The notes: generated by a model from the sequence alone, not told the origin. A stretch of DNA of 6,046 nt from a virus (IMGVR_UViG_3300029219_000085:1-6046); one strand, 5' to 3'. Counted from the stretch's first letter, positions 1 through 5,084 are shown. Translations and numbers: made by a program.

Positions 1-58
1 ATTTAATTTTACTGATTAAGAGCGTCAATCCACTCTTATCTAAATATTCAATAGCTAT
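1..58 (-). CDS. 5' end of a phage structural gene (fibre-like N-terminus) that runs past the window start; putative AUA initiation codon
   Basis: On the minus strand, SD AGGAGG (71..66) is followed by 7 nt and then ATA (58..56). The frame then stays open to the window edge: ATA GCT ATT GAA TAT TTA GAT AAG AGT GGA TTG ACG CTC TTA ATC AGT AAA ATT AAA = (I/M)AIEYLDKSGLTLLISKIK. This frame opens after TAG 79..77. Its first canonical start is TTG 28..26, which has no usable SD spacing. The motif LDxxGLxxLxxKIK resembles N-termini of phage fibre or structural proteins, from memory only. Confidence 0.45.
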   Translation of the reverse strand, partial: MAIEYLDKSGLTLLISKIK

Positions 59-69
59 TCTTTTTCCTC

Positions 70-399
70 CTATAGACTATTCCATAATTCATCTAGTTCG
101 GTTGTTGATACAGATGTTACAGAACCTTCTGCCATAGCTCCAATATCTTCCGGAGTATATACCGGTCTTGTTTCTGCTTTAGCCCATGTTGGAACTGTTG
201 GGTCTATTTCTTCAACCTCTCCAATGATTTCATTACCATTTAATTTAGGCTTGTTCTTTAGCTTGTTGTAATCACTTGTACCTTCAACAAACTTCTCATC
301 TAAGCCTAAAGTTAATGTTTCTTTATCTTCATTGATTTCAATTTGAAGCTTGTCTGATTCATCTTGTATATTCATTTGAATATCTTGCATTAGAATCAT
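70..399 (-). CDS. hypothetical phage structural protein with fibre-type motifs
   Basis: 109-aa ORF with ATG at 399..397, preceded by AAGGAAGTG and a 7-nt spacer. It overlaps the upstream gene by 4 nt. The motifs DYNKLKNKPKLNGNEIIG and PTWAKAETRPVYTPEDIGA are recalled from tail or head fibre proteins of Firmicutes phages. There is no catalytic signature. Confidence 0.7.
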   Translation of the reverse strand: MILMQDIQMNIQDESDKLQIEINEDKETLTLGLDEKFVEGTSDYNKLKNKPKLNGNEIIGEVEEIDPTVPTWAKAETRPVYTPEDIGAMAEGSVTSVSTTELDELWNSL

Positions 400-695
400 G
401 TAATCACTTCCTTATTCAATACTCTATATACCTTTGTTGTCTTGATAGGAGAAGCAATAGCAACTCCTCCTTTTGTAATCATTCTTAATTGAATGTTGCA
501 AGTTCCTTCTTTGAAATTGAGTGTTTCTTCTTGGCTTAACAATACAGAAATAATATTTCCTTCAATATCTAAATCACTTGATTCTTTTTTCAAGATATAT
601 CCGTTCTGTTCAAATACAACATAGATATTCTGCATTTCATTTAAATCAATATCATTTATTGTGATTTGAATCGTTGGTGTAGTTCCTTGTCTCAT
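396..695 (-). CDS. hypothetical small phage structural protein
   Basis: The track ORF begins at TTG 716. The better start is ATG 695..693, which forms an ATGA start/stop overlap with the TGA (694..692) of the upstream gene and follows AAGGTGA. The product begins MRQGTTPTIQITINDIDL and is 99 aa. Confidence 0.65.
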   Translation of the reverse strand: MRQGTTPTIQITINDIDLNEMQNIYVVFEQNGYILKKESSDLDIEGNIISVLLSQEETLNFKEGTCNIQLRMITKGGVAIASPIKTTKVYRVLNKEVIT

Positions 696-1432
696 GATTT
701 CACCTTGTAAGACCAATCTTTGCCTACTTCACCGTCATCAACTTCATACGCCCAATCGGCTAGAATCTCATGACCATTCTCATCTACTAGCGTTCCATCT
801 TCTGTTAATAGAATCGTAGTGAAATGGTTCTCCATAATCATCTTTTCAATGTTTGAAATTCTGTTAGATAGTTTTCCTGCCGTATTTGCGTCTAACGTAT
901 CTTTTACAGTTTCAAACCAATCATTGAATTCTGTTCTATTTGCATTCATTTCAGATTCATTCTGAGCCTTAATTTCTTTGAATAGCTCCGTTACTTGAGT
1001 GAATAAATCCAACGATTGTACACTCTTAATAGCGCTTGTAACTGCTCCACAACGTGTTGAATCTAATCTTGTATCTGTAATATCTGAACCTTTAACTTCA
1101 TTTGAATTACCTGTGACCGTAACTGTAGCTAATACCAAATCGTAAATAGAATCACTTCTTGTGATTCCATCATTGATATCACTTGCTACTAAGGTAATGT
1201 TTCTGTATGCGTCATTATCATTCAATCTAAGAATGATGTTGTAGCTTTTAGTTGCAGTATTCTTTTCTAGTGTGATGGTTTCGTCATCTTTCTGCCAATA
1301 GAATGCTCCATTAATATTTGCTCGTCCTGCCTTAACAACTAAAGTTAAGCCTTGAGACTTCTCAACTCTTAAATGGTCTGAACTAGACTCCATTTGTAAA
1401 GTAGCTTGAGAACAATCTTCTGAAAGCGTCAT
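692..1432 (-). CDS. phage structural protein, main reading frame; the N-terminal segment appears to lie in another frame (see 1383..1487)
   Basis: 246-aa ORF. There is no SD before ATG 1432 (upstream sequence GATTAGTACTAT). The stretch LRVEKSQGLTLVVKAGRANINGAFYW...YNIILRLNDNDAYRNITLV matches a recalled phage structural family pattern (LQV..G..V.V.PG.A.I.GY.Y ... R.D.IVLRLD). That family normally has about 40 more N-terminal residues ending in NGV. Confidence 0.7.
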   Translation of the reverse strand: MTLSEDCSQATLQMESSSDHLRVEKSQGLTLVVKAGRANINGAFYWQKDDETITLEKNTATKSYNIILRLNDNDAYRNITLVASDINDGITRSDSIYDLVLATVTVTGNSNEVKGSDITDTRLDSTRCGAVTSAIKSVQSLDLFTQVTELFKEIKAQNESEMNANRTEFNDWFETVKDTLDANTAGKLSNRISNIEKMIMENHFTTILLTEDGTLVDENGHEILADWAYEVDDGEVGKDWSYKVKS

Positions 1433-1487
1433 ATAGTACTAATCTATCGCCATTTCTTGAGACGAATGGAAAATATGTAGTTGCTAT
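1383..1487 (-). CDS. N-terminal segment of the post-portal structural gene in a different frame; putative AUA start overlapping the portal stop (ATAG)
   Basis: The minus-strand frame reads TGA(1496..1494) CGA AGA ATA(1487..1485) GCA ACT ACA TAT TTT ... AAT GGA GTC TAG(1385..1383). This translates as (I/M)ATTYFPFVSRNGDRLVLYDAFRRLFSSYFTNGV*. The NGDR...F...F..NGV pattern is the N-terminal motif I recall for the family encoded by 692..1432. SD GGAGAGGGGGA (1507..1497) lies 9-10 nt upstream of the ATA. There is no ATG, GTG or TTG between the upstream TGA and the ATA. Confidence 0.45.
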   Translation of the reverse strand: MATTYFPFVSRNGDRLVLYDAFRRLFSSYFTNGV

Positions 1488-4595: not shown

Positions 4596-4619
4596 TATTA
4601 CATCCCCTTTCTATATTTA

Positions 4620-4883
4620 TCACTCAATATTTTTGGTGTGCAGAGCGTCTTTTACATTTATACAAGTATTTGTATTCTTTATGTATTCATCAACGTATAA
4701 TTCCTTTTTATCGCCGTTATACGTTACCTCATAGTAATTGTCTGTGCTTTGAGCACTAATCAATGCTTTATTGTTTTGAAGCACTTTAACCATCCATACA
4801 ACGAACATTTCACTGATTGCAATATTTGGATTCACTTGAAATACTGCATTCATTGCTAATTCTTGAAATTCTTTTGAACCCAT
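4620..4883 (-). CDS. hypothetical protein (87 aa), first ORF after the tRNA unit
   Basis: Strong SD AAGGAGG is followed by 5 nt and ATG 4883..4881, and the stop is TGA. I recognise no motif with confidence. The position between the late activator and TerS is typical of small conserved phage ORFs of unknown function. Confidence 0.7.
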   Translation of the reverse strand: MGSKEFQELAMNAVFQVNPNIAISEMFVVWMVKVLQNNKALISAQSTDNYYEVTYNGDKKELYVDEYIKNTNTCINVKDALHTKNIE

Positions 4884-4901
4884 ATTCTCCTCCTTATTAT
4901 T

Positions 4902-4926
4902 AAAAGAACCGAGACAAATGCTCGGT
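4902..4926 (-). terminator. putative intrinsic terminator or 5'-UTR hairpin
   Basis: The minus strand reads ACCGAG CATTTGT CTCGGT TCTTTT. This is a 6-bp stem (4926..4921 / 4913..4908) with a 7-nt loop and an interrupted U-tract. It lies about 80 nt downstream of the tRNA 3' end and about 10 nt upstream of the SD of ORF 4620..4883. Confidence 0.45.
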
Positions 4927-5008
4927 AATATATCAAAGTCTATCGATATGCCATTGTTGGTATTTAATATCTAATTTGGGAAGGACTTACTGATAAACTT
5001 TGTAAACA

Positions 5009-5084
5009 TGGTTGCAGGAGAAGGATTTGCACCATTCGACCTTCGGCTAATAAGACCGACGAGCTACTACTGCTCTATCCTGCT
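5009..5084 (-). tRNA. initiator-tRNA(fMet)-like tRNA with anticodon UAU (5052..5050) and encoded CCA
   Basis: The minus strand folds by hand as AGCAGGA UA GAGC AGUAGUA GCUC G UCGGU CUUAUUA GCCGA AGGUC GAA(U)GG UGCAAAU CCUUC UCCUGCA A CCA. The acceptor stem has 6 bp plus an A1:A72 mismatch. The D stem is 4 bp, the anticodon stem 5 bp and the T stem 5 bp with one bulged U. Long identical blocks match E. coli and B. subtilis tRNA-fMet as I recall them: GAGCAG, GUAGCUCGUCGG, CCGAAGGUCG, CAAAUCC and GCAACCA. Deviations are a 7-nt D loop without GG, G55 in the T loop, and U37. Confidence 0.75.

Follow-up and report, generated by a model that had tools for sequence, protein, structure and literature searches.

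To our knowledge, bacteria and their viruses rely on a single initiator tRNA, with anticodon CAU, and start codons other than AUG are read by this same tRNA through mismatches. Phages reportedly reassign TAG or TGA with the help of suppressor tRNAs, mainly in lytic or late genes (this is said of phages studied by Borges et al. 2022 and Ivanova et al. 2014). In the laboratory, initiator tRNAs with mutated anticodons have been found to carry the amino acid set by the anticodon, to be partly formylated and to initiate at the cognate codon (bioRxiv 10.64898/2025.12.21.695813). Here we describe a locus that appears to join elements of these systems in nature. It lies on a viral DNA stretch of 6,046 nucleotides (nt), IMGVR_UViG_3300029219_000085:1-6046 (hereafter the window), in which four genes for packaging and structural proteins appear to start with ATA and the sole tRNA gene has the anticodon UAU. 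From the sequence comparisons below we regard the coupling of these ATA starts to an initiator-type tRNA(UAU) as strongly supported, and we consider it likely that the phage encodes a private, AUA-reading initiator tRNA that serves mainly morphogenesis genes.

The genes of the window lie on the minus strand throughout, at a GC content of 34%. A first-pass annotation of this DNA had placed in-frame ATA codons, each behind a Shine-Dalgarno (SD) sequence, with no canonical start codon, at 4595, 2887, 1487 and 58; all four coordinates are correct, with stop codons 2-7 codons upstream. The gene for the terminase small subunit (TerS; 4209..4595, matching phrog_606 and phrog_309) has its ATA at 4595-4593, with a tandem in-frame ATA at 4598-4596, the SD sequence AAAGGGG at 4610-4604 and an in-frame TAG six codons upstream. 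The portal gene (1484..2887, phrog_533; 467 amino acids from the ATA) starts at 2887-2885, with the SD sequence AAGGAGGT at 2900-2893, 5 nt upstream, and an in-frame TAA two codons upstream. The ATA of the post-portal gene, which encodes a head protein (692..1487, phrog_1220), is at 1487-1485, where it overlaps the portal stop codon, and follows the SD sequence GAGGGGG at 1504-1498 and an in-frame TGA three codons upstream. The fourth is the 5' end of a fibre-like structural gene (1..58, phrog_24103 family) that runs off the window and whose relatives carry tail-fibre-like repeats; its ATA at 58-56 lies 7 nt downstream of AGGAGG (71-66), with an in-frame TAG seven codons upstream. The distance from SD sequence to ATA is 5-10 nt across the four sites, no ATG, GTG or TTG occurs between upstream stop and ATA at any of them, and all four read ATAG. 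Neighbouring genes start with ordinary ATG codons at 4883, 5437, 695 and 399, as had been stated. Sequencing error, which the first-pass annotation had also discounted, is ruled out as the source of the ATA codons, because the same ATAs recur, over many samples, in 38 contigs of IMG/VR and in about 40 from ENA or elsewhere. Stop-codon recoding and a quadruplet reading of ATAG are likewise ruled out: the anticodon loop has 7 nt, the open reading frames are open under genetic code 11, and G follows ATA in 11 of 25 start clusters.

These 38 IMG/VR contigs, at about 90-94% DNA identity to the window, served as its relatives. ATA is kept at the portal and head protein genes in all 38, and at TerS in all five relatives that have the same TerS type; a second, divergent TerS type, found in 19 relatives, starts with ATA GCA. 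At site 58, 16 of 20 relatives have ATA and four have ATG, and this exchange between ATA and ATG is seen at six sites in all (site 58 and five further genes of relatives). No confident ATA start in the relatives has changed to ATT or ATC. The occurrence of ATG in relatives that carry the same tRNA had been named in advance as an observation against the coupling, and it does occur, in the four relatives at site 58; we read it instead as proof that the ATA stands where a start codon does.

Homology places the N-termini at the same codons. PHROG profiles match the head protein from residue 2-7 onward (its residue 3 corresponds to profile position 8). For relatives, the correspondence of residue to profile position is 3 to 3 in the major head protein, 2 to 2 in the replication initiator and 4 to 4 in the fibre-like gene product of contig L013. 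Portal homologs of 450-468 amino acids with methionine starts align from about residue 9 of the 467-residue ATA form, far upstream of the TTG at 2794. Variation among relatives between the ATA and the first canonical codon falls mostly at third codon positions: the numbers of variable sites at codon positions 1/2/3 are 3/4/15 for the portal, 6/2/23 for the head protein, 6/3/19 for the major head protein and 1/0/11 for the second TerS type. In the head protein gene, polymorphic codons before the first canonical codon comprise 20 synonymous and four non-synonymous cases. Homology, population variation and the behaviour of the ATA codon itself are three independent indications, and they show that the stretches following the ATAs are translated.

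ATA is the rarest isoleucine codon within the genes of these phages (1.3% of codons, 19% of isoleucine codons). We defined an orphan start cluster as one with an SD sequence of at least 5 nt, at most 12 codons after the upstream stop, that has no canonical start at the SD sequence and no SD sequence with a canonical start within 60 codons. An in-frame ATA stands at the SD sequence in 19 of the 42 orphan clusters, against about 1.6 expected; given the internal frequency of 1.3%, chance is excluded as the explanation. The other 23 clusters are mostly weak SD matches or have start codons just beyond the search window, and no comparable class of ATT, ATC or CTG starts is seen. The base preceding the start codon also differs: of 25 ATA-start clusters, 22 have A at position -1, against 48 of the 111 clusters with ATG starts in these phages (p = 4e-5), and this A is complementary to U37 of the tRNA described below.

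The ATA starts are concentrated on one side of the tRNA gene. Counting representatives from four lineages, we find 18 ATA and 23 canonical starts (44% ATA) for genes downstream of the tRNA, and 3 and 59 (5%) for genes upstream (Fisher p = 2e-6); we conclude that the enrichment of ATA in morphogenesis genes is real. In relatives within the window group, the ATA-start genes include those for the major head protein, the minor head protein and a putative tail protein. Because the major head protein and the portal use ATA, initiation at this codon must be efficient during infection, and such efficiency argues for a dedicated decoder.

Candidate decoders and ATA starts occur together across phages. 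ARAGORN finds the tRNA at 4 of the 38 loci, and its presence was set instead by blastn and a pattern search; all relatives that span this region carry it. Scanning IMG/VR for an initiator-type D arm together with a CUUAUNA loop returned this phage group and three other contigs, and a metagenome scan returned 40 human-gut contigs with the tRNA. The same class of tRNA accompanies ATA starts in at least five other gut phage lineages. In contigs L061, L089 and L126 (C1.A72 tRNA), SD-ATA starts are found at TerS, portal and major head genes, and in L126 also at genes that putatively encode a major tail protein and a tape measure; in type Y contigs (L086, L091 and L092; G1.A72 tRNA), they are found at the regulator, TerS, portal and capsid genes; L104 has one confident ATA start, the SD-ATA portal. 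A prophage of the cultured isolate Amedibacillus sp. YH-ame6 (L082; GCA_053848845.1, contig JBSPEZ010000008.1) has the tRNA at 7861-7936, followed by TerS with GAGAGGTG-N7-ATA GCG; its portal gene starts AGGAGGT-N8-ATA AAA, its major head gene also starts with ATA, as do two further structural genes (probably those for the major tail protein and the tape measure), and its early genes use ATG throughout. As controls, three portal-related phages without the tRNA have no strict ATA start among their SD starts and 58 canonical ones. The predicted association of SD-ATA starts with the UAU tRNA is thus borne out by several lineages that have both and three tRNA-less relatives that have neither.

Besides the tRNA, the Amedibacillus prophage has genes for an RtcB RNA ligase and a DNA methylase, and one that is PAPS-reductase-like (L082 1235-2419); judged from sequence, the RtcB hints at a conflict with the host over tRNA cleavage and repair. 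A tRNA scan of 185,579 species genomes gave three unrelated high-GC matches and no prophage of this group. Further matches were high-GC sequences (55-64% GC), namely L045 (4204-4280), L059, L078 (4515-4591), L079 (93-171) and L077, most of which carry an initiator-like tRNA with the loop CUUAUAA or CUUAUCA; their sources are environmental viral contigs and metagenome-assembled genomes of Terracidiphilus, Collinsella and Thermoleophilia. Position 1:72 is U1:A72 in L045, L059 and L078, and the Thermoleophilia sequence L077 is not called as a tRNA. L045 and L059 have no convincing SD-ATA starts and were left out of the system; the high-GC sequences may represent initiator copies that have mutated, or something distinct.

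The tRNA gene of the window (5009..5084, minus strand; found by ARAGORN, 49 bits with the Rfam tRNA model) has, as had been noted, the anticodon TAT (bases 5052-5050, in the loop CUUAUUA at 5054-5048), and ARAGORN labels it tRNA-Ile(TAT) from the anticodon alone. Its earlier description as an initiator tRNA stands in part: it is initiator-like in its 1:72 position, its matches to tRNA-Met and its covariation, and departs from the textbook form in U31.G39, U37, a T-stem bulge and G55. The Rfam model marks position 1:72 as a non-pair, and the window tRNA has an A1.A72 mismatch there; further initiator-type features are G2:C71, C3:G70, A73 followed by CCA, A11:U24 and G30:C40. In 5426 complete Escherichia coli genomes its sole matches are tRNA-Met genes (median four per genome), the best match being a three-gene cluster between mltA and amiC, which are the metZWV initiator genes, and identity to metZ is 78% over the whole molecule.

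We compared 12 distinct tRNA sequences, drawn from six or more lineages. In this set 94% of the cloverleaf is paired, both sides have changed in 13 of the 21 stem pairs, and the observed covariation score was reached by none of 500 shuffles. Position 1:72 is unpaired in all 12 variants, with A, C or G but never U at position 1. The pairs G2:C71, C3:G70, A11:U24 and G30:C40 are invariant in all 12, while 4:69 to 7:66 covary, and this invariance is partly circular in that the metagenome pattern forced A11, G30:C40, U31.G39 and G70-A73; the L082 and L126 tRNAs, reached through portal homology, show the same features. A11:U24 is a hallmark of initiators, and a 1:72 mismatch disfavours binding to EF-Tu. 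The determinants of the formylase are the 1:72 mismatch together with 2:71 and 3:70, and the minimal determinant for the P site is G30:C40, the one pair of the anticodon stem reported as both essential and sufficient in E. coli (PMC5389676). The formylase determinants of tRNA-fMet (G2:C71, C3:G70 and A73) are present in all variants. The paired 1:72 and purine 37 of an elongator tRNA-Ile are absent, as are the CAU anticodon and methionine identity of tRNA-fMet, UAU being found in every copy. Position 37 is U in all low-GC copies, including those from the IMG/VR scan, in which that position was left free. Two versions of the anticodon stem differ by three compensatory pair changes, and the loop CUUAUUA is fixed. 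Within this phage group (the window together with L083, L097, L117 and L120) the tRNA takes two forms. The D loop of the window type is short (AGUAGUA, without GG) and its T loop is UGCAAAU, with G55; type X has a normal T arm (UUCAAUU) and the D loop AGUGGUG. Positions 18 and 55 appear to have changed in concert, which suggests a remodelled contact between D loop and T loop.

We infer charging, formylation, P-site use, the dependence of translation on this tRNA and any role in timing or gating, such as one that would keep these genes silent in lysogens. In outline, a descendant of tRNA-fMet with the anticodon UAU would pair with AUA and act as a second, private initiator, and ATA would replace ATG, at the normal distance from a strong SD sequence, in a subset of genes (TerS, portal, head protein and fibre-like protein). 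The tRNA would be transcribed from its site between the gene for a putative late regulator and the packaging genes, and then aminoacylated, most likely with isoleucine by isoleucyl-tRNA synthetase (IleRS) given its anticodon. Unmodified UAU binds AUA strongly and AUG weakly on Bacillus subtilis ribosomes, and a tRNA of this kind is charged by IleRS (PMC3919564). Formylation would follow, the formylase determinants being kept, then placement in the P site by IF2 and initiation at the AUA positioned by the SD sequence, so that the proteins would start with (formyl-)isoleucine. U37 may also pair with the preceding A as a fourth base pair; this would mirror the extended codon-anticodon idea proposed for E. 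coli, in which U at -1 would be the partner of A37. Many virion proteins would then need a phage product for their efficient synthesis.

More broadly, and tentatively (our judgment here is nearly balanced and stops short of endorsement), these gut phages of Bacillota could possess a natural orthogonal initiation channel, in which a tRNA(UAU), probably charged with isoleucine and formylated, reads AUA on roughly 40% of morphogenesis genes. Virion proteins would in that case begin with a residue other than methionine, and late output would hinge on the level of phage mRNA multiplied by that of phage tRNA, giving either a gate with a delay or threshold or a means of translating during a shut-down of AUG initiation.

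Several observations, beside the partial circularity mentioned above, weigh against a dedicated initiator or narrow what it could do. The three consecutive G:C pairs of an initiator anticodon stem are incomplete: the window tRNA has G29:C41, G30:C40 and U31.G39, and most relatives have AU/GC/U.G, where the third pair, U.G, has a pyrimidine:purine orientation unlike that of the natural au/GC/gu variants. The T arm of the window type is odd (a one-base bulge in the T stem and G55) and could impair function. Charging is uncertain, in that the methionyl enzyme MetRS is unlikely to accept UAU and IleRS normally needs A37 (t6A), which here is U. The ATA set had been thought strictly late, and this did not hold: in the window group ATA also starts genes for a RusA-like resolvase, replication initiators and a few other proteins. 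Nor is the premise that AUA is a very poor start codon generally valid; the efficiency depends on context, and in an optimised in-vitro initiation region AUA with the ordinary initiator matched AUG (PMC5499595). Strict dependence or gating is not implied, as ATG variants coexist with the same tRNA and early genes use ATA. Possibly the ATA starts arose by mere drift after the tRNA was in place.

The alternative that survives best, although we consider it unlikely, takes the molecule as an elongator tRNA-Ile(UAU) that supplements the decoding of internal AUA codons, the ATA starts being read independently and inefficiently by host tRNA-fMet. The name given by ARAGORN from the anticodon, the acceptance of UAU by Firmicute IleRS (PMC3919564), the adequacy of AUA with a normal initiator in the optimised in-vitro context (PMC5499595) and the incomplete set of G:C pairs would all suit it. 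The heavy internal use of ATA that would call for such an elongator is not found, however, the codon being the rarest for isoleucine at 1.3% of codons; the 1:72 mismatch in 12 of 12 variants and the invariant A11:U24 are both initiator features; U37 precludes t6A37; and the E. coli matches are to tRNA-Met alone, in the number expected for four initiator copies. Decoding by an unaided host initiator, moreover, leaves unexplained why ATA starts are found only in phages that bear the tRNA.

Slightly less probable still is a role in counter-defence, in which a replacement initiator with an altered anticodon stem-loop (U37, G39) evades nucleases that cleave tRNA-fMet (for example, VapC-type toxins) and the ATA starts are secondary. 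One published proposal holds that mutations in the loop let phage tRNAs escape anticodon nucleases. In the present tRNA, compensatory changes accumulate quickly in the anticodon stem around a fixed loop, and the Amedibacillus prophage encodes the RNA ligase RtcB. Late translation would persist during host shut-off, and such a role overlaps with that of a private initiator and does not compete with it. Escape alone, on the other hand, needs no change of anticodon or of start codons, no nuclease or defence gene was identified in this analysis, and the tRNA scan of species genomes did not identify the host of the window phage. That the ATA starts are an illusion of annotation, the proteins in fact beginning at a TTG or ATG further downstream and the in-frame stretch before it being untranslated, is highly improbable: public gene calls do start downstream (the 436-residue portal cluster P0001, and TerS and portal in Amedibacillus), but those starts have no SD sequence, the upstream stretches vary as coding sequence does and align with the N-termini of homologs and family profiles, ATG replaces ATA at the same position in some relatives, and in one TerS type the first 50 codons include no canonical one. 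A private initiator tRNA for AUA remains our preferred reading.

The order of features along the minus strand is SSB, a coiled-coil gene, the regulator gene, a hairpin, the tRNA, a hairpin, a DUF6275 gene, TerS, the terminase large subunit (TerL) gene, portal, head protein, two small genes and the fibre-like gene. SSB (5641-6046) is partial. The small coiled-coil gene (5434..5628) has a possible dual start, at the optimally spaced ATA 5628-5626 or at the in-frame ATG 5622-5620, and is a candidate fifth site (AGGAGGTG-N6-ATA GAA ATG, 5620-5643) that is ambiguous, with ATG two codons after ATA; AATAGAAATG at this gene is invariant in 31 relatives, and the spacer is variable. The arrangement ATA NNN ATG was also observed at several early genes of relatives. 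The putative late regulator, a small sigma-70 region 4-like protein (5111..5437, ATG start), has a weak match to Pfam Sigma70_r4 (E = 0.008) and weak NCBIfam sigma-factor matches; its gene is directly upstream of the tRNA, and this order of regulator and tRNA recurs in other lineages. One hairpin with a T run lies between regulator gene and tRNA (5102-5125) and another, terminator-like, between the tRNA and the DUF6275 and TerS genes (4902..4926), both minus-strand consensus matches from a scan. Because it is bracketed by two hairpins with T runs, the tRNA may form a small transcription unit of its own, with the regulator gene on one side and the late operon on the other. Just 5' of the tRNA start stands TGTAATAAT, a TG-extended -10-like sequence.

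The DUF6275 gene (4620..4883; Pfam DUF6275, 2e-25) provides an internal contrast to the ATA genes, with an ordinary AAGGAGG-N5-ATG start. TerL (2891..4225; Terminase_6N and Terminase_3, and tblastn matches to phage terminases) is not an ATA gene: its TTG start overlaps the last codons of TerS (4209-4225) without a recognisable SD sequence, which suggests that its translation is coupled to that of the ATA-initiated TerS. No GenBank phage has near-identical or similar DNA to the window; by tblastn TerL is at most 41% identical to that of known phages, the closest named ones being Clostridioides difficile siphoviruses, and an exact-protein look-up of TerL returned only one 1.5-kb Logan contig. 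The head protein gene carries a 14-nt frameshifting deletion near 1390 that is private to the window copy (none of the 38 relatives carries it): at 1375-1394 (minus strand) the window reads AATGGAGTC|TAGTTCAGACC, and all 38 relatives read AATGGNGTNTTCNTNGAYGATTCTAGTTCAGACC. The first frame ends at TAG 1387-1385 and the remainder lies in the +1 frame; the PHROG alignment crosses the junction, and the gene is one continuous open reading frame from the ATA in all 38 relatives. A programmed +1 frameshift is thereby ruled out, and the deletion would be either an assembly error or a mark of a defective genome.

The ATA starts have consequences for annotation. Portal cluster P0001 (1406 member sequences), called at 436 amino acids from a TTG, is missing its first 31 residues, and calls in the Amedibacillus genome from internal ATG codons leave TerS 34 and the portal 53 residues short. 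Because gene callers systematically truncate proteins that start with ATA, genes such as those for TerS, portal and major capsid are misannotated in gut-metagenome phages. The system is accessible to experiment, as the cultured isolate Amedibacillus sp. YH-ame6 harbours a prophage with the tRNA.

A full-text literature search returned no report of a natural initiator tRNA with an anticodon other than CAU or of phage gene sets starting with ATA, which is absence of evidence only. If the reading holds, a natural second initiator with its own set of start codons would add a new level to gene control. The phage tRNA shares with bacterial tRNA-fMet (metZWV, metY) the unpaired 1:72, G2:C71, C3:G70, A73, A11:U24, G30:C40, the variable loop AGGUC and an encoded CCA. 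It differs in having UAU rather than CAU, U37 rather than A37, one or two of the three G:C pairs, U31.G39, A, G or C at position 1 and, for tRNAs of the window type, G55 with a bulge in the T stem; being phage-encoded, it would coexist with the initiator of the host. With the elongator tRNA-Ile(UAU) of Mycoplasma mobile and of a B. subtilis tilS-deletion suppressor it has in common an anticodon that reads AUA and little AUG (PMC3919564), but those elongators have a paired 1:72 and a purine at position 37, and the phage tRNA has neither. The likeness to stop-recoding phages is that a phage tRNA alters codon reading and that the codons it acts on cluster in late or structural genes, which would make late expression reliant on a tRNA of the phage. 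In the present case, however, the step concerned is initiation and not termination, and the tRNA is of initiator rather than suppressor type: its anticodon is UAU in place of the CUA, UCA or UUA of a suppressor, and the genes, instead of carrying in-frame stops, are open under code 11 apart from the 14-nt deletion. The engineered orthogonal initiators (i-tRNA-AAC and amber initiators) likewise combine an initiator body, a changed anticodon and a complementary non-AUG start codon. They are laboratory constructs, whereas the phage tRNA is natural, conserved in several lineages and accompanied by dozens of native genes with the cognate start; if the reading is correct, it would be the natural counterpart of these engineered orthogonal initiation systems.

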